From: Folioceros fuciformis
Lineage: Eukaryota
Direction of reading: 5' to 3'
DNA: 64,000 bases
Assembly (NCBI GenBank): GCA_049999805.1
Contig: JBNGIO010006283.1
Coordinates: forward strand, 234,742 to 298,741
The first letter of the stretch is position 1, and each line of letters starts with the position of its first letter. Both the position numbers and the translations under genes were made by a program. Shown piece by piece: positions 8,685 through 56,458 of this stretch. The notes under the pieces are model-generated. The model was not told where the DNA came from. It ran no database searches and was given only the letters and a program-made list of their open reading frames with translations.

Positions 8685-10229
8685 TCAACTGCTGAGTTGC
8701 AGCCACGGATCCACTGAGTGCAAACTTTTGTTCAAAAGACTCTTGTAAGGCAAGGTGGGGAGCCAGCTCCAGACTGCATGCGTTTCTAGCATGCCGACAG
8801 CCACAATGTCGACTATGTGGTCTAGATCCATATGGTCATGCATAATGTATACCTGGTCTAGCCCGGCCACAATCTTCATCCCAATGGCTAGCATGTGCGT
8901 GATATATTCCAAAGTTTGATTATGGCTATCCATGTGTGACAATGGGCCCATGAAGCGAGGGACCATGGCCACGGGCATGGCAGCCACCACCTTCCAAGTA
9001 ATGCTCGCTAGATCCAACTCCCATACGTGCACGCAAAATGCTATTTCTTCATAGCTAGGTACCCCCTGGGAGTCCACTCCTACAGCGACGCACAACAGTC
9101 GATCTTGTACGTTAACGGGCCCCTTACATGAAACCATTTGGAAGCCGGGAGGAATTGCCACATTTGACCAACTCCACATAGCCTGCTTTAGATCGTAGGT
9201 CAAGAGATTACACCTTTTGGTAAGGTAGTATAGCACAGTGCCCCTAAACACTCCTTGATGGGACTCGTTCTGGATGTTGTGAACGAAGCTTTCAGCCAGG
9301 TCAGGCACGTTCAACGTGCAGGTTGTCACGCTCCAGCCATCATGCATGGAATCAAATATCAAAGTCGAAATGGGTAAGGGAGGATGGCCACTAGATGGCC
9401 ATATCCTCTCCACCACCACCACCTTGAAGTGGCACATATTTTCGTCCACAAATATTCCCCGTACATCTTGGATCCCCAAGTTATTTGGGAGAGCCGGCAG
9501 GCGAGCCCAGGTGCGCGTCACAGGGTTGCCCAGGTATGGGACTGCGTCCTCCATCCCTGAAGACATGGACAAAAGCACACCGCCGCCCGCCGTCACTACA
9601 GGAAGATCCAAATGTGAGAAGAGTTGGAAGAGGTCGACGATTCTTGTGGAGAGCTCATCATGAAGCTTTGTCGGGGGCGAGTCACTATCGTAGAGCTGGT
9701 GTGATAGTTCTAGAGCATGTGGCGACAACTGGAGCTTATGCCAACAGTCTACGTCAGGGTCGTAGATACACGAGGCCATGCCCAAGTCGGGTGTCAAGCC
9801 TACCACAAACAACATTCGTTCTCGCGACGTCTCCAACTTCTCTTTTAGTAGGAATGATGATGATCCAGCCTCATTCCACGATGCACACACCGTGCGTGCC
9901 CGGACTAGGCTTGCCATAGGCAACTTTGCCAAGATGGTAATTAGCAAATCTGAACACAACTCGCTGCATTCCGTTTTGCTTCCGTTCGCATTCATTGAAC
10001 TAGGCTTCGCTGAGACTATCTTGCCATTATCTCCCTCCATGCGGTTGCATAACCACTCCTTCTCGTCCTCCAAGTCCGTCGACCCCGATTCCCTCGCTCT
10101 CTTAAACATTGTTTTAATGGTTGAACTAAGCAACTTAAAATGGGCCGATAATGAACACAACTTAGACATTGTTGTAATGGCTAAACTAAGCAACTTAAAG
10201 TGGACCGATAATGAACACAACTTAAGCAT
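8685..10229 (-). CDS. Intronless F-box protein, divergent paralog of 6210-7625; true start may be a downstream Met
   Basis: F-box SELCSDLLITILAKLPMASLVRARTVCASWN. Shares RMLFVVG, CIYDP, GNPVTRTWARLPALP, LLTYDL, VWELD..W.VVA.MP and WSWLP blocks with the upstream F-box gene. Confidence 0.85.
   Translation of the reverse strand: MLKLCSLSVHFKLLSLAITTMSKLCSLSAHFKLLSSTIKTMFKRARESGSTDLEDEKEWLCNRMEGDNGKIVSAKPSSMNANGSKTECSELCSDLLITILAKLPMASLVRARTVCASWNEAGSSSFLLKEKLETSRERMLFVVGLTPDLGMASCIYDPDVDCWHKLQLSPHALELSHQLYDSDSPPTKLHDELSTRIVDLFQLFSHLDLPVVTAGGGVLLSMSSGMEDAVPYLGNPVTRTWARLPALPNNLGIQDVRGIFVDENMCHFKVVVVERIWPSSGHPPLPISTLIFDSMHDGWSVTTCTLNVPDLAESFVHNIQNESHQGVFRGTVLYYLTKRCNLLTYDLKQAMWSWSNVAIPPGFQMVSCKGPVNVQDRLLCVAVGVDSQGVPSYEEIAFCVHVWELDLASITWKVVAAMPVAMVPRFMGPLSHMDSHNQTLEYITHMLAIGMKIVAGLDQVYIMHDHMDLDHIVDIVAVGMLETHAVWSWLPTLPYKSLLNKSLHSVDPWLQLSS
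10101..10229. repeat. 60-bp tandem duplication (just over two copies)
   Basis: 10101-10160 and 10161-10220 are near-identical, giving the repeated peptide KLCSLSxHFKLLS in the ORF N-terminus. Confidence 0.9.
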
Positions 10230-10489
10230 GGAATATAATCACTTTTCTTTGTACTTCATTTTCATGCATGGTGCTTTAGCATATATAGATGATCACAAAG
10301 CTTTCCTTCTGTTTTTTGAGCTAAATATATCCAAGTATACATTGCAAGGATATATTTATCTCGAACCCCTATATGTATAATATAGTCCTATTCGGCTCAT
10401 ATAACATATACATGTCAAAAGCCAAAGCAAAGGTATTTGGGGCACGAAGAGCAACCTTGGTCACCTTCGGCACTGGCGATGTTTGGGTG

Positions 10490-15521: not shown

Positions 15522-15625
15522 CTGCTATTAGTAATCATTAGGCTTTAGGGGGTTAGCGTCTACTATTCNNNNNNNNNNCTGCTATTAGTAATCATTAGGC
15601 TTTAGGGGGTTAGCGTCTACTATTC
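15522..15625. other. Assembly gap (10 N, 15569-15578) with duplicated flanks
   Basis: ctgctattagtaatcattaggctttagggggttagcgtctactattc occurs on both sides of the Ns. Confidence 0.9.
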
Positions 15626-19173: not shown

Positions 19174-21553
19174 CTAGCCTATCACTGATTCCAGCCGAGG
19201 TGGGGGTGCACCCACAACCGAATTGCGCTGGCCGAGGCCCGGCCGTTGCCTTCTCTCGGCGAAGCCTCGTCCTCCAGGGTTCGTCTTGCGTCCGTCTGCA
19301 ATCTGCCCTCCACCGAGGACCAACGACTGGCCGAGAAGGATGGCAATCTGATTGGCCATTTCCTGTGCCTGGTCGCGTTGGGGGAAACATTCGGCTGGAA
19401 AGTGGCCAGCCAGCCAGAGATAGGTGGAAAGCAACTGATGTTGAGTCTCCAGAGCCATCATCTCCAGCTGTCTTGAGGTAGCCGGGGACCCTGCCATGTA
19501 CAGCTGCACAGGGATCTTTTGACTGTACGCTATTGCATACTTCTGAAGAGCATACAAGGCTTTAGGATCCCTGGTGTTCACAGGTGCAAAGCAGAAATAG
19601 AACCGGTCTTCCAATGACAAGCCTTGCACTTTCTCCAATACGGTTGCAATCTTCTTGAGATTGTCATGACGACATAAGAAATACGAACCTTCCAGTCGGC
19701 AAATCTGGGAAAACCTGTCCAACAGTGCACCAAAACCCAGATCTGGCAGCTGAGTGGCGAAGAGTTCCATCTGTTCAAAAACAGGGAACAGACCCGCTGA
19801 TGTCGACTCCTCGATGTCTTGCTTCAGACAATGGATTAGGTATGGAATGTCAGTTGAGTAAAAGCACGTTGCCATCCCTTCCGGATAGAGACTGCTCCTG
19901 CGTCCTGCCCTTCCAGCGATTTGCTTCACCATGGACGAGGGGATGGGTCCCTTCTCATCTCCATTGAACTTGTGTAAAGTGGAGAAGACCACTCTCCTAA
20001 TGTTCAAGTTCAGTCCCATGCCGACAGCATCGCTGGCCACAAGGACATCATACCCACTGTTGGCTTCGTTGAAGAGCTTCGCTTGCTGCGTGCGTGTTTC
20101 CGGAGGCAGTGCCCCATAGACTACACAACATCGATGGCTGGTGGCAAGCTCCACCTCCCGTTTAATTTCAAAAATGCCTTTCCTGGAGAAAGCAACGATG
20201 CAGTCTCCAGCCTGCACATTCCGAAAATCTCCTCTCAATGATAGCTCATCTACCACGAGGGGCTTGAATCTCACATATTCTCGTACCACCAGCTCATCCC
20301 CAGTCGCTGCACACAGGCTCTCCAGCAGACGAATGGCACTTGAATCCCCACACACATGCACCTCATCAGCTACCAACCCTAAGAACGCTCTAGTCCAAGC
20401 CCAACCCCTATACTCATCTGCCATCATCTGAACTTCATCTATCACAGCAACTTCCCAAGGCTGGTTCATGAAGGCCATCTCGACGGTACAAGCCAGGTGC
20501 TCAGCGAACGGCACATCCTTCTTTTCTTGTCCTGTGCGCAGGTTGCAGTACACCCCCTTAAGATTGACAAAATCGTATACTTCCATCGCCAGCAGTCTGA
20601 GAGGACTGCAATAAATCCCGTTCTTCGCCGCCATGAAGCGCTGAAGTGCATTGTACGTCTTACCACTGTTGGTAGGCCCACAGTGATAGAACACTTTGCG
20701 TTTCACAGCCCGAGCGAAGGGATACCACCCTTCAGGCTTGGTCAAATCAGCAGTGCTCACAAGTTCCCGATACCTACTGATCTCCTGAGGGTATGTCTCC
20801 ACACAATACTCTGCAAAAATTGGGAACAAAAACTCTTCCGCCTTGTTAGTAGGACCCATTCCGATCAAAAAAGCACGTAGCTCTCCCGAAGATCTCTTCA
20901 TGAACCACTTGCGGAAAGAGCTGCAAGCGGTAGGGAAAAACTTCGAATTCACATAAAGAGCAAGAGCCTGATCAGATGCCCACCTGGAGCCAAAGGAAAG
21001 AAAGTGTAAGCATGCGGCATTCTGCTACCAAAACCCATCGTGTAGAACAAGAGAATCGTAGAATTTCAACATACTTCCAAGCCAACGTGCATGCAGAAAC
21101 GGGGTCTCACCCTCTGCTGGCAAATCTTCGAAATATCTCTCCCAGCGAGCCCCTCTGCTTGCTCGGTACGCCCTCGAATTTCTCACACTCCTGCAGAGCC
21201 CTGAAAATTGCATGGGAATCCTGAAACTCGACTCGTCCTTTCCCAGTACTAGCTACACCATCTCCACCTTCAGTATTAATCATACTACCATTGTCCATTG
21301 CCCCTCGGGCTGCAGACGGGCTTCCATCCCTTATCCGCACTGATGCACTCGCGAAGTGCCTGTCCTGGTGACCACAACCCGCTCCGTAGAGAAAATGCCG
21401 CAGCTCGGACCTCCAATCATGCAAACCGGGATCTCCCCCAACATCACCACGTACAACCGAAACCTGGACCAGGAACTCGCGTTCCAATACACGACTCCGG
21501 GGTCGAGCCCGCCGGAGCAATTGGTGTAGGATCCTGAAGTGGACCCTACCCAT
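19174..21553 (-). CDS. SUV3: SUV3-family mitochondrial ATP-dependent RNA helicase (DExH18-like), 2 exons (21553-21111, 20983-19174)
   Basis: HCGPTNSGKT, YCSPLRLLAMEV, IDEVQM, YGALPPETR, ASDAVGMGLNLNI, KQIAGRAGR. GT-AG intron joins FASRG|WASDQALALYVNSKFFP in frame. Arg-rich presequence-like N-terminus. Confidence 0.92.
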
Positions 21554-24235: not shown

Positions 24236-26691
24236 ATGCATAGCAGCGCAGTGTGGTGGAGCAGCGGCAAGCTCTGCACCCTGGTGCCCCACTCTTTCCA
24301 TACTGTGGCCAAGAGACACGGACGATGTCACTCAAGTGAGTGAGTGATGGCTTGCATCCTATCATGTTCTCTGCCTTATGTTTTGGTGTGTGCATTCTCA
24401 TGGGTCATGGAAGCGGAATCTGGTGACTATCTTTCTTGCTGTCATGCATGCAGATCAAGTTAACCATCGGGCATTCACCGGAGGAAAATTTCTGGGACTG
24501 TTGGAGACTAAGGGTGGATCGGGTCACTCTTGTAGGAGGATTTCATGGAGGATGGGAGAAAGAACGTCAGTTGAGCTTTCCCCTGTGGTGGAGCGAAGTG
24601 ACGGGCTGCTGGAACCGTCTGCCACCGCTCCTGGTGATGGGAGGGTGAAGAAGAAGGTTTGCTTCTGGGTTGGCTACGTTGGAACCGTGTACAAAGGTTG
24701 GTAGACGGGTCAGCCCCTGTAGATTAGTGGATGCTCGATAGTTGGTCATCACGCTTGAGAGTGAAGCATGCGGTTGCCCTGAAGTCTCTCAGGTTTGTGC
24801 AGGACTTCAGTTGCAACGGTCCACAGGAGTCCCCAGTAAGTAGCTTCTGTCCAAGCTACATTGGTTCAGGTGCTGCACGTAGCATGTAGGTTGTCACACT
24901 CTCTCCGGTCTCTATTATTGCAGCCGTGGAAGCAGAGCTTGAAAAAGCCATACTCGCGGCTCATGGAATGCTCGCTAGTAACTTTGGGAATCTTCACAGA
25001 CTTGGATGGGCTCGCAGCAGCCGAACTGATAAAGGGGTAACCGTCGTGCTATACAAGTTGCTGTTTGTGCCAAAGCCTGATGCAACATGTATGTTACCTA
25101 TCGTTAGCACGACTGGAAGGTCCTGGTTTGACTGCACCTCAAATTGCTAATCTAGCAATTGGAGGAGGTTGCACTTCAGCTCCCCTTCGTTGTGACTGGG
25201 TTAACACAGATCAGCAGGTTCTAAGTTTGTTTCTACGTTCAGCTCAGGTGCACTCCATAAGTACAGTCATTTCTATGAAGATGGAAGTTCCAGAAGCAGC
25301 ATGGGTCCATGACAGGGACGGTCTTGCTTTGGCGGAAAGTATCAATGCTCACTTACCTGCAAACATAAGAGTGTTTTCTGTTGTCCCAGTGCCCAGGTCT
25401 GACTTAAGCTCAGTGTGTTGATTCTTTGTCACATCTGCAATTTCCGGCACTGATCTTCCTGGTGTTGCAGGTCTTTCGATTCGAGAAAGATGTGTTTAAC
25501 CCGCACATACGAGTATCTACTACCAGCGGCTGTGCTTGACATCAATCACTCTGGTTCAGTGGCAGCAAGGGAGGATCGAGTGACAGAACTCAACACTATA
25601 TTATCAGGATTTCAGGTTGTCAGCCAATTGAGCCACAGACAGCTTGGTTAGGAGGACGTCTAGTAGTACCCGTGACATAGGCTGTAACCTTCCTGCTGTT
25701 GTTGATTGGCAGGGAAGGCATCCTTTTCATAATTACACCGCTCGGAGCAAGTACAAAGACGTGAACAAGCCTGCCTATTTGAGCCGCAGGGGCAATCGGT
25801 CTTCCAACGAAGAATCGGCGGTTATGCCGGACGTGTTGAATGACAGTGACCCTAATGGTGTGAGCATCCCGGAAGATGAACTTTCATCTTTTGATGAAGA
25901 GAGCCAGGTTCCAGGTGGGGCAGAAGAGGACGAATCTATAGGAAGGGCAAGGTGGTTGTTTGAGCCTGACAGCAAAGACAAAGTCAGGACTGCACATTTT
26001 CGGCACATTATCTCGTGCTCCTGTAGTCCTCACATTGAAACTTGCGGAAATGTCCGTCTTCTCAAATTGTCCATCACCGGCGAGTCCTTCATGCTCCATC
26101 AGGTACAGATGATATTGCAGGATGTGTGTTGGGTTCTTTATGTCTTGGCACTGGTCTTTATTTGAATTTTGTACTGCTGTCTGGGTCGTCAATTATTGTG
26201 TGTGGGTGATGTGTTGTCAGATCAGGAAGATGGTGGGAACAGCTGTGGCTGTGTTGTGGGGAGTGCTTCCCCCTGACGTGATACCTCTGTCACTGGCTCG
26301 ACACTCCCGCATAATCTTGCCACTTGCGCCGTCAGAGGGCTTAGTTCTTGTCGACAGCGTGTTTCAGAATTTTCGGCAGCCCAGCTCATATGCCCAGAAC
26401 TTGATGGCAACCATGAATGATGCCAAACATTCAAGGTTAGAACCATCCAGCGAGGTGAAGAACATTATGCAAACATTTTTGCAGACTGTGGTGCTCCCGA
26501 GTGTGGCCCCCCTGTTGGACCACACTACTCCAGTGTGGTCTTTCTGGATAGATAATGTCACCTCACAGGCTCAGATAGAGGATGCGGAGCTCAATCCTGT
26601 ACGGGAGGCCTTCCGTCACTGGAGTGAGCAAAATGCATTGCAGAAGGACCTTAGGAAACAGCAACTGCAGCCAGAAGAAATCATTCTTTGA
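24236..26691 (+). CDS. tRNA pseudouridine synthase (TruA/PUS1 family), multi-exon, probable organellar transit peptide
   Basis: [28 protein letters not shown] (catalytic Asp), [54 protein letters not shown]. Start inferred from splice phase. Confidence 0.9.
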
Positions 26692-26750
26692 ATTCACTAC
26701 GTGTAATTGCTGATAAAGAAAGTTTACTACTTACAACTTCTGCCTTGCGT

Positions 26751-29700
26751 TCAATTCACCTCACCGTGCCAGCTTTGCTCCAAGGCTGCATGCCCAGTCT
26801 CCTTTAGCTTAGTGCTAAGGTCTTCCAGCAATGCATATAGCGACGGTGCTTCCTGATGCTCCTGGTCCGCGACTCGAAAAGTGTGAACCTTCTGCTTATG
26901 CTCAATCCAACTTTTGCCAGGCTGCTTCCTTGCCCCTAAACTCTGCCTTAACTCAGACACCTCTTTAGCACACTCAAGCATGCCAGCATCAGCATATATA
27001 CTCGCCATCAGTACGTACGCTGCCGAATGTTTGGGCTCTAGAGCCACAGCCTTGTCGAAAAACTGCTTCGCCCTTCCCACGTCACGGTGCTTTCTGCAGG
27101 CATCCAGCAAACACATCCACACTGGCAAATCAGGCTCCATTGGCATGTGGGAAAGCAGCTCTTCTGCCTTGCTCAACTGTCCACATCGACCAACAAGGTC
27201 GATGACACAAGTATAATGCTCCACGTCCGGAGCTAAGCCATGTTCGCTAGTCATGCTTTCAAAGTACTCCAGGCCCAGGTCTACCATGCCAGCATGACAG
27301 CAAGCAGATAGGAGTGCCAAGTACGTGACCCGATTAGGACTCACCCCCGCCAGGCGCATATCGTCATAAGATTCGATACTGAGCTCACAATGTCCAAGTT
27401 GCCCATATCCTGCTATCAGTGCAGTCCATGACACGACATCGGGATGTGGCATTGAGTCAAAGATGCTCCGAGCAACTTCCATGCTCCCAACTTTGGTGTA
27501 TGCATACATCAAACTGTTCGCCACAGAGGGACGGCACTCCAACCCGCGCTCCACTATCCTTTTGTGGGTTTGTACACATATATCCAGGGCTCCAGTCTTG
27601 CTGCATGCTTGTAAAACAGCCACAAGCGTCGCCTCGTTGAACGTCACGCTTTCTGCTTGCATGGTTGCGTAAAGTTGTAAGGCCTTTTCCCCTTGCTCAT
27701 GCTGAACATAGCCTGCGATCATTGCATTCCATGCCACCACGTCACGCTGAGCCAGGTTGTCGAACACCTGTTCGGCATCCTGCATGCTACCACACTTTGC
27801 ATACAGACTAATCAAGCTACTCCCAACGAAGACATCTAATGCAGAAGCCCGGTAAGCCTCAGCATGTAATTCCCTTCCCTTTTGTAGGCACTCCTTCTTC
27901 ACATTCTGGCCATCCACGAAGGCATATGCCTCCCTTTCCGCAAGGCTCCAACATGCTTGAAGACTGCTGACAAAAGTGCGAGCATCTGGCCTGACCCCTT
28001 CCTCACGCATCTGCTGGTACATTTCCAATGCCTTTTCGGCTTGGTCCTGCTGTGCATACCCGGCAATCAGGGAATTCCACGTGATCACATTGCGCTGGGA
28101 TAATGTGACAAACACCTGTTCTGAGTCCTTCATACTGCCACACTTTGAGTACATGCTAACTAGACTGTTCCCCACAAAGATGTCCGATTCAAAGCCATGT
28201 ACTCTAACGCTGGCATGTATTGCCCTACCTTTCTGAAGGGATAATGCTTTGACAAGCTGGCCACCGGTCAGTACAGTTTCCTCCTTTTCTGCAAGGCTGC
28301 CACAGGACTGGAGAACACTGACAAAGGTCCGGGCATCTGGACTGACGCTCTCCTCTTCCATTTGGCTAAAAGTATGAAAGGCATCTTCGCCTTGGTCCTG
28401 TTCTGCATAACCTGCTATCATGGCATTCCATGCTACCACATCACGCTGCTGCAGTTTTTCAAATACTTGTTTTGCATCCTGGATGCTTCTGCACTTTGCA
28501 TACATGCTAATCAATGTGATATTTACAAATGTGGATAGACAGCCTCTTCCTGTAGCTGCAGCATGGATTTGTTTCCCCTTCATTAGGGAGCCCACTTTGA
28601 AACATTTCCCATCGCAAACCACGCTTTCTTCTTCTTCTGCGAGGTTACCGCACGCTTGTAGGGCACTAACAAAGGTTCGCGCATTTGGAGCGACCCTTTG
28701 CTCTTGCATCTCGTGATATAGGCGCCAGGCATTCGCACCATCACCCTGCTGAGCGTATGCAGCAAGCATGGCATTCCATGACACCACGGAGCGTTGCTGC
28801 AATTTGTCAAAAACGTGCTCTGCATCCTTGATGCTCCCACATTTTGAATACATGCTAACCAAAGTGTTTCCAACAAAAATATCTGATTCGAAACCCCCTT
28901 CTGTTGCACCAGCATGTATCTTCCTGCCCACTTGAAGGGATTCAATTTTGAAACCCTGCTCATCAACGTAAGTGCTTTCCTCCTTCTCTGCAGTGCTGCC
29001 ACATGCTTGAAGGGCACTGACAAATGTCCGGTCAGTTGGCCTAACTCCTGCTTCTTGCATTCGCCTAAACATCTGTAAAGCCTTCTCACCTTGGTCCTGT
29101 TGAGCATATGCTGCAATCATGACATTCCACGTTACAACATCATGCTGAGGCATTCCATCAAACACCTGCTGTGCATTCACAGTGCTCCCACACTTTGCAA
29201 ACATACTTACCAACGTATTTCTAACATACCAATCCGATTCAAACCCATGTGCCAGCACATCAGCGTGAATCCTGTTGCCCTCTTCCAGATCTCCCAGTTT
29301 GCTGCATGCTTTGAGTAAACTGACAAACGTGTACCTGTCAGGCTGCACACCTTCCTGCTGCATCTGGTCATAGCACAAAAGTGCCTCACGACATTTCCCA
29401 GCATTGCTATACCCTGAAATGATAGCTGTCCATGAAAATGCAGTTCGATGGGGCAACCTTTCAAACAACTGCACCGCATCTGCAAGGCTACCACAGTTAG
29501 CCAGCGTAGTAACCATGAGATCCCCCAAGGATTTGTTAGACTCTAATCCATGTTTTGCCAGCTGAGCAATGATCTGCTTAGCCTCCCAGAGAGCTTTCCT
29601 TTTCATACAGGCTTGTAGAAGCGTCTGGTAAATCTGTACAGAAGGCACACATCCCTGCTGGTCCAGATGGAGCAAACCAAGCACAGCCTTGTTAACTTGT

Positions 29701-32700
29701 CCTTGGTGACAGAGTGCCTCTAATGATCGAATGGTCAAACGACTTGACTCTTCAGGTTCAGATGTCTGTTGCACAGTTGAGACTGCTGCTGAAAGGGTCC
29801 CTACCTGCTCCAGTTTCCTGTTTAAGTATGTGAGAAATTTGTAGATCGTTGACTCTAGGTGATGTCTGTGGTCACCAACCATAAAGGTGTGCACCTCCTG
29901 ACCATGCTCGATCCAGCTCTGCCCGGGCTGTCTGGTTGCAGCCACACAATGCCTCAATTCATCTACTTCCTGAACACACTCCCACATTCCAGCATCAGCA
30001 TAGATATTAGACATGAGCACATAGGCTGCACCATGTCTTGGTTCTAGACCCACGGCAGCATCGAAAGCACGCTTTCCAAGTTCCACCTCACCGTGCTTTC
30101 GGCAAGCACCAAGCAGACACAACCATACGGGCAAATCAGGCTGCATTGGCACGTGGAGAAGTAAATTTTCTGCTTTGCTAAAGAGTCCTGCGCGACCAAC
30201 CATGTCAATAACACAGGCATAATGCTCCGTAGTAGCAGAAATGCCATGTTCATTCGTCATGCTCTGAAAGTACTCCAGTCCGTTCTCCACCATGCCAGCA
30301 TGACTGCATGCGGAGAGGACTGCCATAAATGCGACTCCATCTGGTCTGAAGCCTGCAGTCAGCATTTCCTCAAAAAGCTGCAAGCTTCTAATACAATCTC
30401 CAACACGGGAATACCCAGCAATGAGTGCACTCCACGACACGAGACTAGGCTGAGACAGTGAGTCGAATACAAGCTGAGCATCCACCATACTCCCACATTT
30501 GCCATACGCATTGATTAAACTGTTGGCCAGAGAAAGGTTGCACAGAAGTCCTCTTTCCACGATGCTCTCGTGGACGTGCATGCACATGTCTAAGGCTCCT
30601 GTACGGCTGCATGCGTCAAGTACAGAAATGAAGGTGGCTGTGTCTGCTTTGACTCCTTCTGCTTGCATCTGGGTATAAATTTGAAACGACTTCTCCCCTT
30701 GCTCTTGGTGAGCATATGCTGCTATCATGGAATTCCATGACACAACATCCCGCTGATACATCCTGTTGAACACGTGTTCCGCATCCTTGATGCTCCCACA
30801 TTTTGCATACATACTTATCAAAGTACTACCTACGAAAGCTTGTGACTCAAAGCCCCACAAAGTCGCATCAGCATGCACTGCCCGGCCCTCCTGCAAAGCC
30901 TCGACCTTCACATTTCTTCCATCCACCAGTGAATATACCTCTGTTTCTGCAATGCTACCACACGCTTGCGAAGCACTGACGAAGGTCCACATATTTGGCA
31001 TGATTCCTACCGCTTGCATCTGCTTATAACACTGCAAGGCGGCTCCTCCACGGTCTAGTTGGGCGTACGCTGTTATAAGGGCATTCCATAACACCACATC
31101 GTGCTGCAAGGATGTCTGAAATACATGCTCTGCATCTTTGATGCTTCCACACTTGGCATACATGTGGACCAAAATAGTGCTGACGGAGGTGTCTGAGTCG
31201 AGACCCATACTCACAGCTGTAGCTTGTATCTCCCTCACCTGCTGCAAGCACTCCATCTTTACATGCTGTCCGTCAAGCAGTGCACTTTCTTCCTTTTCTG
31301 CGAGCTTGCCACATGCTTGGAGGGCATTAACAAGCGTCCGCAGATCTGGGCTCGCCCCTTCCTGAGACATCTGCATATACAGCTGCATTGCCTTCTCTGC
31401 TTGGTCCTGTTCAGCATATGCCGCAATCATGATATTCCATGAAACCACATCACGCCGCTCCAGCCTGTCAAACGCCTTTTCTGCATCCTTGATGCTCCAA
31501 CAATTAGCGTACATACTAACCAAGGAATTGCCAACAACGAGGTTGGATTCGAGACCGTCTTCAATGACGGCAGAATGTATTTCCCTTCCCTTTTGCAAGG
31601 ACTCCACCTTCAGATATTGCCCATTTATGAATGCACTCTCCTCCTTTTCTGCGAGCTTGCCACACGCGTGGAGAATGCTGACATAGGTGAGTCCATCTGG
31701 CTTGAGACCTTCCTCTAGTAGTTGATAATAAATTTCCAATGCCTTTTCACCTTGGTCCTGCTGAGCATATGATGAAATCATCGCAGTCCATGCTACCACA
31801 CTGCGCTTAGGCAATCTGTCAAATAGCTGCTTGGCATCATTGATGCTGCCGCACTTCCCATAAACATTCACCAAAGTGCTTCCCACAAAACTGTCCAAGT
31901 CAAGACCCCTCTCAACAGCCCCGGCGTGTACCTTCCTTCCCTTCTCCAACGACGCCACCTTCACATACTGCTCATCCACAACAGTAGTTTCCTCAGTATC
32001 TGCAAGAGACCCACATGCTTGAAGTGCAGTAACAAATGTTCGAGCATTTGGCGTCATGCCCTCTAGTTGCATCTCCCAGAAGGTTTTCAAGGCGCTCTCT
32101 CCCTGCCCACTCTCAACATATGCTGCAATCATGGCATTCCACAACGCCACATCAGGCTGCGAAAATCTGTCAAACACCTCCTTAGCATCAGTAATGCTCC
32201 CACATTTTGCATACATGAGGACCAAAATGCTCCCAATAAAAACATCTGATTCAAGACCTCTCCACTTAGCTTTGGCATGGATTACCTTTCCCCACTGTAA
32301 GGCATGCACTTTCAAATTCTGGTCGCCTACAGTTGAAGTTTCCGTCTGTCTTGCAAGGCTGGCACAGGCTTGGAGAGCACTGACAAAAGTCCGATCATTA
32401 GGCGTAAAACCTTCCTCTTCCATTCTACAGTATATCTGCAAGGCCTTCTCGCCTTGGTCCTGTTGAGCATATGCTGCAAGAAGTGCATTCCACGACACCA
32501 CATTCCGTTGTGCCAATCCGTCGAACACCCGTTGAGCATCGATGATACTCCCACACTTTGAATACATGCTAACCAGAGAGCTCCCAACAAACACGTCGGA
32601 TTCAAATCCATGTGCCTTAATTTCAGAATGTATCCGCTTGCCTTGTTCCAGGTCCTCCAACCTGCTGCATGCTTTGACTAGGCTCACAAAGACATGAGCG

Positions 32701-33086
32701 TCGGGCTGCACACCTTCCTGTTGCATCTGGTCATAGCACAACAAAGCCTGCTGACACTTTCCAGCAGTGATGAACCCTGAGATGATGGCTGTCCAAGAGA
32801 GAACAGTTCGGTGTGATAATCTAGTAAAAACCTGCAGCCCATCTGCAAGGCTACCACAGTTCACGAGACTGGTGACCACCAGATTTCCTAGATATCTGCT
32901 GGCATCTAACCCGTGTTTTGTAAGGTGAGCTTGTACCTGCTTTGCTTCCGCAAGGGTCTTCTGCTTCGAGCATGCCTGCAATAATCTCCTGTACATCTCA
33001 ATGGACGGGACGACTCCCTGTTGATCCATACGGAGCAGAGCCAGTAGAGCCGCATCAAGCCGTCCTTCCTTGCATAGGACCTCCAT
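26751..33086 (-). CDS. Giant PLS-class PPR protein made of two tandem PLS-E1-E2-E+ units, no DYW catalytic domain
   Basis: Uninterrupted 2125-codon ORF (first ATG 33086) with repeated LVSMYAKCGS / DVVSWNAMIAAY motifs. E/E+ block (PDLPVW.CLL.ACRKH..AAYVLM..IYADAG..PG.SWIEH..VHTF) occurs both mid-protein and at the C-terminus. Confidence 0.93.
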   Translation of the reverse strand: MEVLCKEGRLDAALLALLRMDQQGVVPSIEMYRRLLQACSKQKTLAEAKQVQAHLTKHGLDASRYLGNLVVTSLVNCGSLADGLQVFTRLSHRTVLSWTAIISGFITAGKCQQALLCYDQMQQEGVQPDAHVFVSLVKACSRLEDLEQGKRIHSEIKAHGFESDVFVGSSLVSMYSKCGSIIDAQRVFDGLAQRNVVSWNALLAAYAQQDQGEKALQIYCRMEEEGFTPNDRTFVSALQACASLARQTETSTVGDQNLKVHALQWGKVIHAKAKWRGLESDVFIGSILVLMYAKCGSITDAKEVFDRFSQPDVALWNAMIAAYVESGQGESALKTFWEMQLEGMTPNARTFVTALQACGSLADTEETTVVDEQYVKVASLEKGRKVHAGAVERGLDLDSFVGSTLVNVYGKCGSINDAKQLFDRLPKRSVVAWTAMISSYAQQDQGEKALEIYYQLLEEGLKPDGLTYVSILHACGKLAEKEESAFINGQYLKVESLQKGREIHSAVIEDGLESNLVVGNSLVSMYANCWSIKDAEKAFDRLERRDVVSWNIMIAAYAEQDQAEKAMQLYMQMSQEGASPDLRTLVNALQACGKLAEKEESALLDGQHVKMECLQQVREIQATAVSMGLDSDTSVSTILVHMYAKCGSIKDAEHVFQTSLQHDVVLWNALITAYAQLDRGGAALQCYKQMQAVGIMPNMWTFVSASQACGSIAETEVYSLVDGRNVKVEALQEGRAVHADATLWGFESQAFVGSTLISMYAKCGSIKDAEHVFNRMYQRDVVSWNSMIAAYAHQEQGEKSFQIYTQMQAEGVKADTATFISVLDACSRTGALDMCMHVHESIVERGLLCNLSLANSLINAYGKCGSMVDAQLVFDSLSQPSLVSWSALIAGYSRVGDCIRSLQLFEEMLTAGFRPDGVAFMAVLSACSHAGMVENGLEYFQSMTNEHGISATTEHYACVIDMVGRAGLFSKAENLLLHVPMQPDLPVWLCLLGACRKHGEVELGKRAFDAAVGLEPRHGAAYVLMSNIYADAGMWECVQEVDELRHCVAATRQPGQSWIEHGQEVHTFMVGDHRHHLESTIYKFLTYLNRKLEQVGTLSAAVSTVQQTSEPEESSRLTIRSLEALCHQGQVNKAVLGLLHLDQQGCVPSVQIYQTLLQACMKRKALWEAKQIIAQLAKHGLESNKSLGDLMVTTLANCGSLADAVQLFERLPHRTAFSWTAIISGYSNAGKCREALLCYDQMQQEGVQPDRYTFVSLLKACSKLGDLEEGNRIHADVLAHGFESDWYVRNTLVSMFAKCGSTVNAQQVFDGMPQHDVVTWNVMIAAYAQQDQGEKALQMFRRMQEAGVRPTDRTFVSALQACGSTAEKEESTYVDEQGFKIESLQVGRKIHAGATEGGFESDIFVGNTLVSMYSKCGSIKDAEHVFDKLQQRSVVSWNAMLAAYAQQGDGANAWRLYHEMQEQRVAPNARTFVSALQACGNLAEEEESVVCDGKCFKVGSLMKGKQIHAAATGRGCLSTFVNITLISMYAKCRSIQDAKQVFEKLQQRDVVAWNAMIAGYAEQDQGEDAFHTFSQMEEESVSPDARTFVSVLQSCGSLAEKEETVLTGGQLVKALSLQKGRAIHASVRVHGFESDIFVGNSLVSMYSKCGSMKDSEQVFVTLSQRNVITWNSLIAGYAQQDQAEKALEMYQQMREEGVRPDARTFVSSLQACWSLAEREAYAFVDGQNVKKECLQKGRELHAEAYRASALDVFVGSSLISLYAKCGSMQDAEQVFDNLAQRDVVAWNAMIAGYVQHEQGEKALQLYATMQAESVTFNEATLVAVLQACSKTGALDICVQTHKRIVERGLECRPSVANSLMYAYTKVGSMEVARSIFDSMPHPDVVSWTALIAGYGQLGHCELSIESYDDMRLAGVSPNRVTYLALLSACCHAGMVDLGLEYFESMTSEHGLAPDVEHYTCVIDLVGRCGQLSKAEELLSHMPMEPDLPVWMCLLDACRKHRDVGRAKQFFDKAVALEPKHSAAYVLMASIYADAGMLECAKEVSELRQSLGARKQPGKSWIEHKQKVHTFRVADQEHQEAPSLYALLEDLSTKLKETGHAALEQSWHGEVN

Positions 33087-33724
33087 CTCACAGGCATTCC
33101 TGAAGTTGCAGAAAGTAGGGGTCGTCAAGCATCACAGAAGTCAAGAGCAGAACGTACATTCAAACGGGTACAGAACTTTCAAACAGGTCGCACCTTCCAT
33201 TCACAGATGTCCCAGGCGTTGACGACGCTGATAGGTCTAACATCCCAACCTGCACTCGAGCATCTAGCATGGCCTGGGTGCAGGTCCACCTTGTCGTCAG
33301 GCTGGTAAGTTCGTAACAGAAAATTTGTGCCACGCCCACACTCGGTGCCGATCGATGTTTGTCTTTCTATCTTCTGGTATGGCTCGCTGCTGCTGCCTGT
33401 ATCTGACGTCTTATTGAGGCAGACGTGCGTGGTCCGCGGTCATCAGGCTTTCCCTTGCTCCTTGAGAATAGGGGACAGTGTCGATGAAGGCATCCATCAC
33501 AAAAGACGCAAGGAATAGCCTCTTCCACGCCTTACGCAAGACTGGGACACGGGAGCATAAGGCACGTTCAACTTGGTCAGTCTGCTTTTCCTTTCCAGTT
33601 ACCGATAGCAGTGCTTGAGGATGTGGAGCCTGACGACAGAAGAAGCCAGTCTGAATGGTCCCGCTGTATACTGATGATGGGTAGATCCCGTTTTCTGCTT
33701 TGACAGGTACTTCCTGCTTATAGG

Positions 33725-36700
33725 GTGGTGGCGTATGAAACAGATACAGAGGTGGGAACCTGGAGAAACAGCGAAAAGGGGCAGCTGAGCTACGCTGTTG
33801 AAGCATTGGGCCTCCTTGTCCAGCAGGGGTCTTATGTCTCCCCACTTGTCTTTTACGAAGTTTTCAGGAGATCGAGAGCCAAGAAGGAACTGGTGGTGGG
33901 ACGATATATTCATGCTCTTGTTCTCAAGAGTGGGTATGAGTCAAACAAGCTCCTGGCCAACCACATCATCCGCATGTATGCGTCTCATGCGAGGTTGCAG
34001 GAAGTGCTGCAAGTATTTTCCAAAGTGGTTGCACCAAACGCTCACGTGTGGGCATCGTTCATCTTGGCGCATGCTGAACATGGGCATCCGATGCAGGCAA
34101 TAAAACTGTACTGGCAGATGCGACGGTCTGGGGTCCTACCGGATAACCACATCTTTGTGGCTGTTCTGAAAGCATGTGCCAGGGCAGCAGATTTGACTTC
34201 AGGAAGGCAGCTGCATGCGGAGGTGTTGAGAGGTACAACTGAGCCGGATGTGTTTGTTGGGAGCTGCCTGGTGGACATGTATGCGAAATGCGGGAGCTTA
34301 GACGATGCCCGGAGAGTCTTTGACAGCCTAGCCACGAGGAATGTTGTGACATGGACTGCCATGGTTTCTGGATATTCTCAGCATGGACTTGGGCACGAAG
34401 CTCTGATTCTGTACGCAGCTATGCACCAGGAGGACATCACTCCAGCTGACCACGTGATATTTATGTGCCTGCTGAAAGCATGTGCCAGCGTTGGCGCCCT
34501 ACGAGAAGGGAAACAGCTGCATTGCCAGATTCTGGAAAGATGCTTGGATGAAGATCCAGTGATGGGCAGCTCCTTGGTAGACATGTACGCCAAATGTGGG
34601 AGCCTGGATGATGCCCGCAAGGTTTTCGACAGCTTAGCCTCCAGGAACGTGATCACATGGAATGCGATGCTTGCAGGATATGCTGAGCACGGGCTTGCCG
34701 ATGAAGTTCTCTCCCTTTATGATACCATGCAGCAAGGAGGCATCACTACCCCTGACAGTGTCACATTCATGTGCCTCCTGAATGCATGTGCCAGTATTGG
34801 AGCCACAGGTGTAGGCAAGGAGATGCATTCACAGATCCAAGAGCAAGGACTGGACATCGACGACGTTCTTGGTAGCTGCCTGGTGGACATGTATGCAAAA
34901 TGCGGGAGCTTGACTGATGCCCGCCATGTGTTTGACAGTCTAGCCTCAAGGAATGTGGTGGCCTGGAACACGTTGCTGACAGGATATGCTCAGCATGGCC
35001 TCGGGCGCGAGGCCCTCAGCCTGTATCAACGTATGCAAGAGGAGGGCGTCCCTCCTGGTGAAATCACATTTGTATGCCTTTTGAAATCATGTGCCAGCAT
35101 TAAGGCACTGCCTGAAGGTAAGCAACTTCATTGTCAAATTCAGGAAAGAGGGCTGGAGGCTGATGTGGTCATTGGCAGTTGCTTGCTGGACATGTATGCC
35201 AAATGCGGGAGCTTAGACGATGCCCGCAAGGTGTTCGACATGATGCCCACAAGGAATGTGGTTACATGGAATGTCATGCTCGCAGCATATGCCGAGCACG
35301 GACTGGCACAAGAATCTCTTACACTTTATACAGCAATGCAACAGGAGAGCATCACTCAACCTGACCACGGCACATTCGTCTGTCTCCTTAAAGCATGTGG
35401 CAGCACTGGAGCTCTACATCAGGGGCAGCAGCTCCACCGCCAGATACAAGACAGGGGCCTGGACTCCGATCTCGTCATCAGTAACTCCCTGGTAGACATG
35501 TATGCAAAATGCTCGAGCGTCGAGGAAGCCCGCAAGGTGTTCGACAGCATGGTCACGAAGGACGTGGTAACATGGACAGTTCTGCTGGGAGGATATGTGG
35601 GGCACGGGCTGGGTCAAGAGGCCCTTCATCTTTATAAAACCATGGAGCAGGAGGGCATCGCTCTGGCTGATCATGTTACATTTGTCTTCCTCCTGAAGGC
35701 ATGTGCCACCATCGGAGCTCTGCATCAGGGGAGGCAGCTGCATGCCCTGGTTCAGGAAAAAGGCTTGGAAGGCAACGTGGTTGTGGGCAGCTGCCTGGTG
35801 GACATGTACACCAAATGCGGGAGCATTGACGATGCACGCCGAGTGTTTGACAATCTTGCGATCAAGGACGCTGTAACCTGGACTGCCATGATCGCAGGAT
35901 ATGCCGAGAACGAGCTCGGAGAAGAAGCCCTGGCTGTGTATTACAGTATGCTGCAGGAGGGGGAATGGCCAGCTGATCGTGTCACATTCGTTTGCCTGCT
36001 GAAGGCGTGTGCCAGCATTGCAGCCTTGGAGCCAGGTAGGCAGCTCCATGCCAGGATTGAGGAGGTGGGGTTGGGCGCTGACGTAGTTGTTGGGAACTGT
36101 CTTGTGGACATGTATGCTAAGTGCGGAAGCTTAGACGACGCCAGGTTGGTGTTTGAGAGTTTACCCACGCGGAATGTGGTGACCTGGAACGCCATGCTTG
36201 CAGGATACGCCGATCAGGGGCTCGGTGACAAGGCTCTCGACCTGTATGCACGTATGCAGGCTGAGGGACTCACTGCCGCGGATGCTGTCACATTCGTGTG
36301 CCTGCTCACTGCATGCTCCAGCACCGGAGCCCTTGGTTTGGGCAAGGAGCTCCATGCTCAGATTCGGGGACGAGGGCTGGAAGCCGATGTGGTTGTGGGA
36401 AGCTGCCTGGTAGACATGTATGCCAAATGCGGGAGCTTGGAAGATGCCCGCATTGTGTTTGACAGCTTGGGTAGCAGAAATGTGGTCACCTGGACTGCCA
36501 TGATCACAGCATACGCTCAGCACGGGCTTGGTGCAAAGGCCTTACAGTGCTTTGAAGAGATGCGGCTGGCTGGGGTGAAACCCAACGAGGTGACATATCT
36601 CTCGCTCCTCTCTGCATGCAGCCATGGTGGGCTGGTGGACCAAGGTGTGGAGTTCTTCACATCCATGAGCAGGGAGCATGGTTTCACTCCCAGTATTGAG

Positions 36701-37081
36701 CATTACGTGAGTATGATAGACCTCTTCGGCCGCGCTGGATGCTTCGCAAGAGTGCAGGACTTGCTGTCAACCATGCCCATGCCGCCTGATCTGGCTACCT
36801 GGTTGTGTATCCTGGCTGCGTGCCGGAATCACGGCAACGCGGAGCTGGCTGAGAAAGCCTTCAATGGAGCAGTTCTTCTGCAGCCCAATCACCCTGCTGC
36901 ATATGTATTGATGTCGCACATATATGCAGATGCTGGCCACTTGCATCGTGCAAACGAGGTGGAGAGGCTGAGGAAGGAGAGAAAAGCCTGGAAAGAGCCA
37001 GGGCGCAGCTGGATTGGTCATGAGTGGGACGCTCAAGCGTTTCTTGTCGGGAGTGCCCTCTCTCAGAATGCATTAACATGA
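33725..37081 (+). CDS. PLS-E class PPR protein; start codon unresolved, upstream exon likely
   Basis: Regular P-L-S triplets (LVDMYAKCGSLDDARKVFD, RNVVTW), then E1/E2 and PG box PGRSWIGH, ending without DYW. Confidence 0.92.
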   Translation: MVAYETDTEVGTWRNSEKGQLSYAVEALGLLVQQGSYVSPLVFYEVFRRSRAKKELVVGRYIHALVLKSGYESNKLLANHIIRMYASHARLQEVLQVFSKVVAPNAHVWASFILAHAEHGHPMQAIKLYWQMRRSGVLPDNHIFVAVLKACARAADLTSGRQLHAEVLRGTTEPDVFVGSCLVDMYAKCGSLDDARRVFDSLATRNVVTWTAMVSGYSQHGLGHEALILYAAMHQEDITPADHVIFMCLLKACASVGALREGKQLHCQILERCLDEDPVMGSSLVDMYAKCGSLDDARKVFDSLASRNVITWNAMLAGYAEHGLADEVLSLYDTMQQGGITTPDSVTFMCLLNACASIGATGVGKEMHSQIQEQGLDIDDVLGSCLVDMYAKCGSLTDARHVFDSLASRNVVAWNTLLTGYAQHGLGREALSLYQRMQEEGVPPGEITFVCLLKSCASIKALPEGKQLHCQIQERGLEADVVIGSCLLDMYAKCGSLDDARKVFDMMPTRNVVTWNVMLAAYAEHGLAQESLTLYTAMQQESITQPDHGTFVCLLKACGSTGALHQGQQLHRQIQDRGLDSDLVISNSLVDMYAKCSSVEEARKVFDSMVTKDVVTWTVLLGGYVGHGLGQEALHLYKTMEQEGIALADHVTFVFLLKACATIGALHQGRQLHALVQEKGLEGNVVVGSCLVDMYTKCGSIDDARRVFDNLAIKDAVTWTAMIAGYAENELGEEALAVYYSMLQEGEWPADRVTFVCLLKACASIAALEPGRQLHARIEEVGLGADVVVGNCLVDMYAKCGSLDDARLVFESLPTRNVVTWNAMLAGYADQGLGDKALDLYARMQAEGLTAADAVTFVCLLTACSSTGALGLGKELHAQIRGRGLEADVVVGSCLVDMYAKCGSLEDARIVFDSLGSRNVVTWTAMITAYAQHGLGAKALQCFEEMRLAGVKPNEVTYLSLLSACSHGGLVDQGVEFFTSMSREHGFTPSIEHYVSMIDLFGRAGCFARVQDLLSTMPMPPDLATWLCILAACRNHGNAELAEKAFNGAVLLQPNHPAAYVLMSHIYADAGHLHRANEVERLRKERKAWKEPGRSWIGHEWDAQAFLVGSALSQNALT

Positions 37082-43190: not shown

Positions 43191-44675
43191 ATGGCGGACG
43201 ACCAGAAGACTCTTGATTTCGTGGCGCAATTCTGTACGCGGACCTGTCTCGGCACCAAGCTGAGGTATCACAGCTGGCCCGCCGCCTCCTTCTCAAACAA
43301 CGGCTTTGGTGCGGCCTCTTCTTTCCCTCGCATCAGCACAGACTGCACTGCCTTGTGTCCGATGGACATGTTACAGGGCCATCACTTGTGCATGGGAAAG
43401 TATGCGACTTCTTCGGCCCCGATCTTCGTTGCTGCGGCCAGCGAAAAGCCACCTGCTTCGAGCTTTGTGGCTGACTTCCTCATGGGAGGAGTGTCTGCGG
43501 CTGTGTCCAAGACTACAGCTGCTCCTATCGAGCGTGTGAAGCTCCTTCTCCAGAATCAGGGTGAGCTGATCAAGAGTGGACGCCTTTCCAAGCGGTACGA
43601 CGGGATCGTTGACTGCTTCCAGCGGACGATCAAGGAGGAAGGTTTTCTTGCCCTGTGGAGATCAAATCTGACCAATGTGATTCGGTATTTCCCGACTCAG
43701 GTATGTCCTGCGTAGCTTACTTACCGTGTTCTTACTTTACTTCTTTGGTGCCAGATCTGACTCCGCATGCCACAGCTGACGCGTGCTCACTCTTGGAGGG
43801 GAATGTCGATCTATCTGCTTGTCATTCTGATGTGCTCCTGGTGTGTCGTGTGTATTACGCCAGCCTGGCCAGGCCTTGAGATACATTGTCTTGTGTAGGC
43901 CTTCAACATCGCTTTCAAGGAACGTTTCAAGAAGATGTTCGGCTACAGGAAGGACAAGGACGGGTACTGGAAGTGGTTCGCAGCCAACCTGGCCTCCGGT
44001 GGTGCTGCCGGTGCCTCGTCCCTTCTATTGACATACTCCCTGGATTATGCTCGTACTCGTCTGGCTAGTGACAACAAGTCAACAACAAAGGGAGGAGAGC
44101 GGCAATTCAAGGGCCTTGTAGACGTGTATCGCCAGACTCTCAAATCCGATGGCATTGCTGGCCTCTATCGTGGCTTCACCATCTCTTGTGCTGGTATCGT
44201 CGTGTATCGGGGCCTTTACTTCGGCATGTACGACTCCCTCAAACCTGTGGTTCTGGTTGGACCTCTCGAGGTATCGTTTTGCGTCTCTGAGATATCGTCT
44301 GTTTTGGCTTCACCTACTACGACAATGCGACTGCTTTTTCCTCCGCTCATTCATACCCGCAATTCTGTGTTGTTTCAGGGAAACTTCCTTGCCAGTTTCC
44401 TCCTGGGATGGGTTGTCACAAATGGTGCAGCACTCACCTCCTACCCTCTTGACACTGTTCGTCGTCGCATTATGATGACGTCGGGAGAGGCAGTCAAGTA
44501 CAACAGCTCACTGCATGCATTCAGGGAGATCATCGCGAAAGAAGGCGCCAAGTCTTTATTCAACGGTGCAGGAGCCAACGTCTTTCGAGGTGTTGCTGCT
44601 GCCGGTGTGTTGGCAGGCTATGACCGGCTGCAGCTCATCTTCTTCGGCAAGGTCTACAGTGACGGAGGCGGTTGA
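43191..44675 (+). CDS. AAC: Mitochondrial ADP/ATP carrier, tandem copy 2, 3 exons
   Basis: Same exon structure and high identity to copy 1, with similar 3' flank. Signature reads RRRIMM. Confidence 0.93.
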
Positions 44676-56374: not shown

Positions 56375-56458
56375 CGTAGGGTGCCATCTAGGTGTCTCGA
56401 TTGAGACAAACNNNNNNNNNNCGTAGGGTGCCATCTAGGTGTCTCGATTGAGACAAAC
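56375..56458. other. Assembly gap (10 N, 56412-56421) with duplicated flanks
   Basis: cgtagggtgccatctaggtgtctcgattgagacaaac occurs on both sides of the Ns. Confidence 0.9.

Follow-up and report, generated by a model that had tools for sequence, protein, structure and literature searches.

The analysed window, i.e. the whole stretch of 64,000 nucleotides under study, carries on its minus strand a single uninterrupted ORF at 26751-33128 (2125 codons, or 2111 when counted from the first ATG at 33086) in which two complete PPR editing-factor units follow one another, and this frame is considered, with slightly better than even confidence, as a real nuclear in-frame fusion gene that encodes a bivalent E+ factor, in what is probably a spore-bearing land plant. 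In plant organelles, the specificity of C-to-U RNA editing is provided by PLS-class PPR proteins of the E+ subgroup, whose members in Arabidopsis and maize work with DYW2/NUWA or DYW1. A specificity factor of this kind binds a cis-element lying upstream of the edited C, and editing is abolished when the factor is lost. Editing factors are taken to follow the same plan, with a single PPR tract and a single C-terminal E/DYW module per protein. In the proposed origin of the gene, a PLS-class PPR editing specificity factor of the E+ type would have been duplicated in tandem and the two paralogues joined in frame, the stop being lost from the C-terminal tail of the first copy and the start from the leader of the second. 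The product would be one polypeptide of ~2100 residues with two independent alpha-solenoid RNA-binding tracts and a flexible linker in between; each tract would read its own organellar RNA sequence via its 5th/last-residue code, each E1-E2-E+ would be presented to a DYW-type cytidine deaminase recruited in trans, and a single import event would deliver two editing specificities. The full functional reading, that is one imported polypeptide with two differently programmed PLS tracts, each with a working E1-E2-E+ and one of these internal, is put forward only tentatively; such a factor could couple two editing events, on one or two transcripts, or hold two RNAs together.

The anatomy given in the initial annotation, i.e. 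a 2125-aa ORF with two complete PLS-E1-E2-E+ units, proved right when the ORF was examined, and the motif layout is as follows:

26751..33128, minus strand: whole open frame, 2125 codons plus the stop at 26751-26753, with an upstream in-frame stop at 33132-33134
33084..33086, minus strand: first ATG (residue 15), directly 5' of the unit 1 cap
32805..33086, minus strand: unit 1 cap, residues 15-108, a degenerate P-L-S-like N-terminal block with 'MEVLCKEGRL' from residue 15
30444..32804, minus strand: unit 1 P1-L1-S1 triplets (seven), residues 109-895, of 101, 117 (five times) and 101 aa
30135..30443, minus strand: unit 1 P2-L2-S2, residues 896-998
29805..30134, minus strand: unit 1 E1-E2, PG box (QPGQSWIE) and E+ tail, residues 999-1108, ending in ...LNRKLEQ; this E domain is internal
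29730..29804, minus strand: linker, residues 1109-1133 (VGTLSAAVSTVQQTSEPEESSRLTI), stop-free, predicted coil
29442..29729, minus strand: unit 2 cap, residues 1134-1229, with 'LEALCHQGQV' from residue 1136
27438..29441, minus strand: unit 2 P1-L1-S1 triplets (six), residues 1230-1897, of 101, 117, 116, 117, 116 and 101 aa
27129..27437, minus strand: unit 2 P2-L2-S2, residues 1898-2000
26754..27128, minus strand: unit 2 E1-E2, PG box (QPGKSWIE), E+ tail and 13-residue C-terminal end, residues 2001-2125

Along the 2125-codon frame, Pfam recognizes many PPR-repeat stretches (PPR, PPR_2, PPR_1 and PPR_3) as well as two separate stretches of E_motif (PF20431), which scores 47.6 and 38.6 bits on the isolated tails for a cut-off of 27.3. 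Each unit is composed of an N-terminal cap, located where the motifs quoted initially fall, followed by PLS triplets, P2-L2-S2, E1-E2 and a PG-box/E+ tail. The tandem P-L-S triplets (about 35/35/31 residues) that characterize the PLS class are found as regular 101/117-residue triplets, seven in unit 1 and six in unit 2, and each of the five 117-aa triplets of unit 1 bears a 16-aa insert in its L motif.

Regarding the tails, the E+ label is provisional. On the one hand, the PG box is visible and both tails can be aligned with DYW-type relatives from this box as far as a 'G-Y' position, beyond which these relatives extend by ~88-93 residues; on the other hand, the Pfam Eplus_motif (PF20430) is matched by neither tail, even at E<=10. 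Besides, neither tail matches DYW_deaminase (PF14432) at E<=10, so the deaminase must be borrowed if the units are active in editing. The tails stop about where DYW-type relatives have roughly 90 more residues of deaminase domain. In lacking the deaminase centre, both units resemble the E+ factors of trans editosomes, which pair with a DYW-type deaminase (CRR4/DYW1 and E+/DYW2/NUWA), but the fusion would put two recruiting modules on one chain; no deaminase partner was identified within the window. Taken alone, each unit displays the full architecture of the E+ subgroup (PLS triplets, P2-L2-S2, E1-E2 and PG box). Besides the unmatched Eplus_motif, the fusion differs from this subgroup by the presence of two units in one frame with one E1-E2-E+ internal, by a 16-residue insert in nine L motifs and by a frame showing no presequence.

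The continuity of the frame could be followed in sequencing runs, of which X3 and X14 are taken as RNA runs from GT..AG joints in a neighbouring gene that are absent in X1 and X2, none of them being recorded as RNA. An artefact, whether a mis-assembly of two genes or a stop or frameshift missed in the linker, is barely credible: nothing speaks for it beyond the general possibility and the fact that the two DNA runs come from one sample, which may be the source of the assembly, and the units, 67% identical in DNA, cannot be collapsed or mis-joined repeats, and an exact short-read contig of the DNA run X1 (record 4, 28824-29919) bridges the linker with neither the stop nor the frameshift that the initial annotation had named as counter-evidence. 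The run X3, under the same organism label but from another study, is free of differences at 29901 (depth 8) and provides exact contigs over 26735-27826 and 27810-28391. In X14, from a related species, a 1681-nt contig (record 11, 28758-30438), about 92% identical with 127 mismatches and 0 gaps, is collinear with the window and crosses the joint unspliced, and two more contigs, 26217-28785 and 30770-31770, show similar divergence; this orthologue is known from contig coordinates alone, and conservation rests on that one related organism. In these contigs, no transcript end or start was seen within the linker, which the initial annotation had named as the mark of two separate genes. A contig across the joint is nonetheless not proof of a single mRNA, since the X14 contig 26217-28785, which takes in sequence of both the convergent neighbour gene and unit 2, shows that overlapping transcripts are merged there.

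In the 176 relatives fetched, one E-domain place was found in 146 and two places in six, and the E domain lies at most 133 residues from the C-terminus in 140 of the 146, which agrees with the initial annotation, where a single E domain at the C-terminus was given as the normal case. The fusion departs from this rule, having two E domains, and the first is already complete at residue 1108 of 2125. Among named organisms, the closest PPR proteins are those of lycophytes, ferns and gymnosperms, with Diphasiastrum complanatum, Ceratopteris richardii and Adiantum as the nearest named sources; the short introns and the E+ type would also suit a hornwort. A number of single-headed paralogues in public assemblies (e.g. 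P0024, P0183, P0189, P0010 and P0075) are 40-50% identical to either unit over their full length and share with the units the cap motif ..LC.EG.L..A...L..M...G..P, the 101/117-residue triplets and the short tail after the PG box, but in all of them the cap is near the N-terminus and the single E domain is C-terminal. Six seed-plant models with two E/DYW regions, namely P0005, P0026 (Cryptomeria japonica), P0041 (Tasmannia), P0043 (Malania), P0044 (Asimina) and P0045 (Reevesia), resemble the fusion in that a single predicted protein carries two E-motif PLS tracts; they are, however, automatic gene models, most with full DYW domains, are only 33-37% identical to the query part and are not relatives of the joint. 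Of these, P0044 contains a ribosomal L34e domain between its units and is therefore a merged annotation. For the frame under study, a merged gene model was considered and ruled out, the joint being a continuous stop-free genomic frame reproduced in X1 DNA and X14 RNA-run contigs.

The same fusion, which the initial annotation had proposed to look for in relatives, was not found in the protein collections searched; these collections do not contain the window's own protein, the public contigs of the organism are short, and such blanks are not proof of absence. A word-indexed search with residues 960-1300 against proteins of 1168-3719 aa gave 56 matches with a best local cover of 57%, none carrying the joint; one exception exceeding this cover is a repeat alignment at 27% identity. 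With a 560-aa query across the joint (lengths 308-980), the best match reached 61% identity and 57% cover, again without the joint, and with a 166-aa joint query (lengths 91-291) none of the 27 candidates was at E<=1e-10. Likewise, none of the best 150 of 13321 HMMER matches (E<=0.001) to a 261-aa joint query among 1.84 billion representatives has its best stretch across the joint. No description of a natural double PLS-E protein was found in the literature searched on PLS-class PPR editing factors (among others PMC11121751 and PMC13386178), and supplementary domain tables, e.g. those of PMC13386178, may list such architectures.

The alignment of the two units runs over their whole length and comprises 982 residues, of which 568 (58%) are identical; unit 1 has one additional PLS triplet, and their DNA is 66.6% identical over 977 aligned codons, which agrees with the initial description of diverged halves and excludes a collapsed repeat. 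Over these codons, pS is 0.66, dS 1.62, dN 0.29 and dN/dS 0.18, with an identity of 50% at third codon positions against 71% at first and 78% at second positions. This dN/dS, together with near-saturated synonymous sites, indicates an old duplication of which both copies were long kept coding under purifying selection, and a fusion gene is a plausible, if unusual, product of an old tandem duplication. In a tree of the C-terminal block (47 rows, 314 columns), the units are mutually nearest rows (path 0.83, 58% identity) within a 10-row clade (SH-aLRT 97), the fork that would make them sisters being open. When the P and S motifs are aligned starting at the C-terminal end, their 5th/last residues match in 2 of 15; as most of them differ, different RNA targets would be implied for the two tracts.

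The same comparisons bear on the idea of a tolerated accident, in which a neutral or recent loss of stop and start would leave one working head, most likely unit 1 since it adjoins the start codon, and a decaying passenger. This is improbable. Odd joins are to be expected, as the PPR families of such genomes are of very large size and undergo frequent duplication (PMC13386178), and no second lineage with the joint was found in the searched collections; yet unit 2 has kept an open frame of some 1000 codons with the above dN/dS relative to unit 1, neither unit has lost the integrity of its PG box or E1/E2, and X14 is devoid of frame-breaking indels over 28758-30438 and 30770-31770, the only coding indels being a compensating -1/+1 pair at 26841/26844.

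Between the units of the fused frame, the linker amounts to about 25 codons, rich in Ser, Thr and Glu, and the stop-free sequence quoted for it initially, TLSAAVSTVQQTSEPEESSR, is found at residues 1111-1130 (window 29739-29798). In a single-sequence AlphaFold model of residues 896-1330, helical repeats are predicted with confidence (pLDDT 80-94) on either side of residues 1108-1132, which are modelled as coil. The confidence of this model is low over E2/E+ (residues 1031-1129), which, for a single-sequence model, is not evidence of disorder. As for the origin of the linker, blastn against the upstream and downstream flanks of the gene returned chance matches only (best E 0.5), and its equivalence to the next 20 residues of DYW domains, from a MAFFT placement, was dropped as too weak. 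At the possible GT donor suggested after LEQ there is indeed a donor-like site, CAG/GTAGGG at 29805/29804 after ...KLEQ, which delimits the following candidate:

29718..29804, minus strand: candidate in-frame GT..AG intron of 87 nt, whose removal would connect ...KLEQ with ALCHQG...

This site bears on the view that the fused frame is real but that the cell makes two separate single-headed proteins from one locus, which is unlikely, though by no means negligible. Splicing from the GT after LEQ to an alternative AG at 29720-29721 would remove a frame-breaking intron of 85 nt and give a unit-1-only protein; alternatively, unit 2 could be produced by an internal transcription start or by initiation at Met 1181, or a polyprotein could be cut proteolytically in the linker after import. 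The AGs lying 85 and 87 nt downstream of the donor are within the range of the three verified neighbouring introns (74, 97 and 118 nt), but the T content of the candidate intron (0.24) is that of coding sequence, compared with 0.28-0.43 in the verified introns, its acceptor is weak, and CAGGTA is present three times in the frame by itself. The 15 joints listed, out of 291, include none at 29805, and in the X14 contig the linker is kept without any gap. In favour of separate products, an internally placed E+ is atypical in view of the C-terminal position in single-E relatives, and the Ser/Thr/Glu-rich predicted coil would be accessible to proteases. With respect to a separate unit 2, a Leu (TTA, residue 1136) stands at the place of the ATG of unit 1 and the first Met is residue 1181, 48 residues in; a protein initiated there would lack the cap and any presequence. 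Since a start codon is missing from the corresponding position of unit 2, the simplest explanation for the conservation of this unit is that translation proceeds from the start of unit 1.

Models of deaminase placement at the target C by E/E+ domains assume a free C-terminal end. Should the bivalent E+ factor prove true, a conserved and expressed fusion with an internal E+ would test this assumption and would show that a trans deaminase can be engaged by an E+ module placed elsewhere than at the C-terminus; besides, it would be a natural case of two specificities delivered by one import event and a template for engineered multi-site PPR editors. Should it be only a tolerated join of neighbours, it would still show that very large PPR families make new architectures, and would caution annotators against treating every double PPR model as an error of merging.

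Regarding the 5' end, the frame is closed 14 codons upstream of the first Met and shows no N-terminal presequence for mitochondrial or plastid targeting, whereas 8-130 residues precede the cap in single-headed relatives, hence the true 5' end is not fixed by the frame. Of note, the depth of X3 is low (1.3-3.2) over the 5' part of unit 1 and the upstream region, and nothing is drawn from it. A putative upstream exon can be drawn from the sequence:

ATG at 33270 to donor AAG/GT at 33194/33193, with acceptor cag/G at 33100/33099, minus strand: candidate 5' exon, phase-compatible

The minus-strand frame at 26751-33128 had been described in the initial annotation as a double-headed PLS-E-E+ RNA-editing factor in one 2125-aa ORF; one frame of 2125 codons with two complete units is indeed present, the coordinates and quoted peptides being all correct. 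Cutting the fused protein at the regular W[NTS] anchors gave the anatomy below, in which unit 2, after the linker, presents the whole plan of unit 1 over again.

Anatomy of the fused gene (minus strand)
33132-33134, minus: in-frame stop just 5' of the fused frame
26751-33128, minus: fused frame, 2125 codons, closing stop at 26751-26753
33086, minus: first ATG, 2111 residues from here
Unit 1 cap: 94 residues, degenerate P-L-S block beginning MEVLCKEGRL
Unit 1 triplets, directly after the cap: seven P1-L1-S1 triplets, of 101, 117 (five times) and 101 residues
Unit 1 C-terminal part: P2-L2-S2, E1, E2, PG box QPGQSWIE and a short tail up to residue 1108 (...LNRKLEQ)
Linker, residues 1109-1133: about 25 residues, Ser/Thr/Glu-rich
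Unit 2: cap (..LEALCHQGQV), six triplets, P2-L2-S2, E1, E2, PG box QPGKSWIE, tail and stop

Pfam scores on the fused protein are overwhelmingly for PPR, with E_motif in two separate stretches, and each unit has the features that define PLS-class factors of the E1-E2 type. A DYW deaminase domain was found in neither unit. From the PG box onwards both tails can be aligned up to the position beyond which DYW-type relatives run on for about 88-93 residues, an alignment on which the designation 'E+-like, truncated DYW' can be accepted, with the caveat that the Pfam Eplus_motif model matches the tail of neither unit. In the PPR code, P and S motifs are read via their fifth and last residues; here the units agree at 2 of the 15 positions aligned from the C-terminus and mostly differ, so that the two PPR tracts are predicted to read different RNA sequences. 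The W[NTS]-anchored split also showed that 9 of the 13 L1 motifs in the two units (27438-32804) carry, between the motif's two helices, a conserved insertion some 16 residues long (e.g. AEKEES..VDGQ.VKVESL), which lengthens the PLS triplet from 101 to 116-117 residues; in each unit the first and the last triplet are normal and without it. Such long triplets occur at least twice in 85 of the 307 fetched relatives, including one Diphasiastrum and one Adiantum protein.

A collapsed repeat, as the initial annotation had maintained, and also a mis-joined one can be ruled out, since the DNA identity of 66.6% between the units (977 aligned codons) is far too low. Regarding the joint between the unit 1 tail and the unit 2 cap, a short-read DNA contig of run X1 matches 28824-29919 exactly, although X1 shares its sample, possibly the assembly's source, with X2, which makes this match weak as independent support. 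X3, a run from another sample and study under the same organism label, is exact wherever it covers, with a depth of 8 and no difference at 29901. The X1 contig shows no stop or frameshift in the linker. The only runs of N in the window (15569-15578 and 56412-56421, ten N each, assembly gaps) lie far from the fused gene. Given units so diverged in DNA and an X1 contig exact over the joint, an artefact is highly improbable.

Aligned end to end, the unit proteins are identical at 568 of 982 aligned residues, with one extra triplet in unit 1. Between them pS is 0.66, dS 1.62 (near saturation), dN 0.29 and dN/dS 0.18, the latter ranging from 0.10 to 0.31 across 150-codon windows, and identity is 50% at third, 71% at first and 78% at second codon positions. 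This dN/dS, together with the low third-position identity, indicates an old duplication of which both copies have been retained as coding sequence since, and it argues against a merely tolerated fusion with one head idle, which we hold to be quite unlikely. Unit 2 has Leu (TTA) in place of unit 1's ATG and its first Met at residue 1181, inside the cap, so that the simplest explanation of its preservation would be translation beginning at the ATG of unit 1. A tree was built of the C-terminal block (314 columns) from 47 rows, comprising both units plus the best 45 among 184 relatives that span the block; in it each unit has the other as its closest row (path length 0.83, identity 58%) and both fall inside a 10-row clade with SH-aLRT 97, a fork of just the two units lacking clear support. 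What stands of the interpretation first offered is a real, old and selectively maintained in-frame fusion of two editing-factor units of the E+ type; work at two sites as one two-headed protein is what we infer, and the fused-protein reading as a whole, this function included, is held with slightly better than even confidence.

The donor-like GT noticed after LEQ is present, at 29804-29803, and can be paired with two acceptors.

GT after ...KLEQ to AG 29718-29719, minus: candidate in-frame intron, 87 nt, which would join KLEQ to ALCHQG
GT after ...KLEQ to AG 29720-29721, minus: candidate frame-breaking intron, 85 nt

The candidate intron has a coding-like T content (0.24 vs. 0.28-0.43 in three verified introns) and a poor acceptor, and since CAGGTA is found three times in the fused frame, the donor-like motif is not special. 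As single-headed paralogues stop 5-20 residues past the 'G-Y/H' position, part of the linker is probably unit 1's former C-terminal tail, read through into unit 2's old leader; comparison of the linker DNA with the gene's flanks yielded nothing as to its origin. Residues 896-1330, modelled with AlphaFold from the single sequence (mean pLDDT 73.8), form confident helical repeats on either side of the linker and coil at residues 1108-1132; the low confidence over E2/E+ is uninterpretable in a model built without an alignment.

None of the runs is recorded as RNA, and the RNA nature of X3 and of X14, a run from a related organism, was judged from spliced joints (15 of 291 joints listed). Both carry three GT..AG joints (74, 97 and 118 nt skipped) in the convergent gene at 24924-26700, X1 and X2 do not, and X3 and X14 therefore hold spliced RNA.

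26735-27826 and 27810-28391: exact X3 contigs, both in unit 2
26217-28785: X14 contig, 193 mismatches, 5 gaps
28758-30438: X14 contig, 127 mismatches, 0 gaps
30770-31770: X14 contig, 79 mismatches, 0 gaps

The joint is crossed unspliced by the second X14 contig, by which transcription across it is supported, at least in the related organism. The sole indels listed in the PPR coding sequence are a one-base deletion at 26841 and a one-base insertion after 26844; three bases apart, they restore the unit 2 frame. From these contigs and this compensating pair, judged by contig coordinates and indels, which would not reveal a stop made by substitution, the related organism shares the locus, with the same neighbour in collinear position and no frame-breaking indel, at a divergence of about 7.6%. 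Contigs are not equal to single molecules, the X14 contig 26217-28785 itself merging the convergent neighbour and unit 2, and in those of the RNA runs PPR segments are joined chimerically in many places. At 27736-28669 and 34741-35207 the depth summed over contigs is very high in each of the four runs (reaching 408 in X1 and 25379 in X14); these stretches are common to many paralogous PPR genes at 90% or more. That separate products are made from this one locus is a tenable but minority alternative to the fused-protein reading.

Closest in sequence are single-headed paralogues of public assemblies, with full-length identities of 40-50%, and the nearest named relatives belong to Diphasiastrum, Ceratopteris, Adiantum, Cryptomeria and Ginkgo. 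Among 176 fetched relatives, 146 have one E-domain place (at most 133 residues from the C-terminus in 140 cases), 24 lack one by the criterion used and 6 have two. All six of the latter are predicted seed-plant gene models. P0005 (Cryptomeria japonica LOC131069670) consists of two PLS-E-DYW units with two full DYW_deaminase stretches, while P0044, an Asimina triloba model, was rejected as a true double protein, the Ribosomal_L34e domain between its two PLS-E-DYW units revealing a merged annotation. Both resemble the fused gene in having two PLS-E units per predicted protein, but both carry DYW. Sequence searches did not show the joint elsewhere among the matches listed, and the literature searched, in PMC13386178 passages of the text, describes no natural protein with two PLS-E units. 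Those passages report PPR fusions with MORF, RRM and zinc-finger domains, and an enrichment of the E+ subgroup in hornworts (PMC13386178).

As to the N-terminus, 8-130 residues precede the cap in single-headed relatives; in the fused gene the Met stands immediately before it, and the open frame extends no more than 14 codons further upstream. Ahead of the ATG there is a good acceptor (cag|G at 33100|33099), and a candidate 5' exon, followed by an intron of 94 nt, can be drawn in phase from an ATG at 33270 to AAG|GT at 33194|33193.

A second PLS-class PPR gene (33974-37081, plus strand, 1035 aa) is arranged head to head with the fused gene, at a distance of about 890 bp from the latter's ATG; it has a Pfam E_motif, ends soon after its PG box, lacks the L1 insert and falls outside the 10-row clade of the C-terminal block tree. 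The three GT..AG introns of the convergent gene (24924-26700, plus strand) are verified by RNA and measure 74, 97 and 118 nt; the frame of its last exon, whose peptide had no match in a Pfam search, ends at 26691, 60 nt from the fused gene's stop at 26751. The X14 contig running from its exon into unit 2 suggests overlapping 3' ends for the two genes. Further long frames in the window are of kinds ordinary in a plant nuclear genome.

5994-7625, plus: F-box protein
8685-10238, minus: F-box protein
19174-21024, minus: SUV3-type mitochondrial RNA helicase (DEXQc_Suv3, Suv3_C)
43899-44675, plus: mitochondrial carrier
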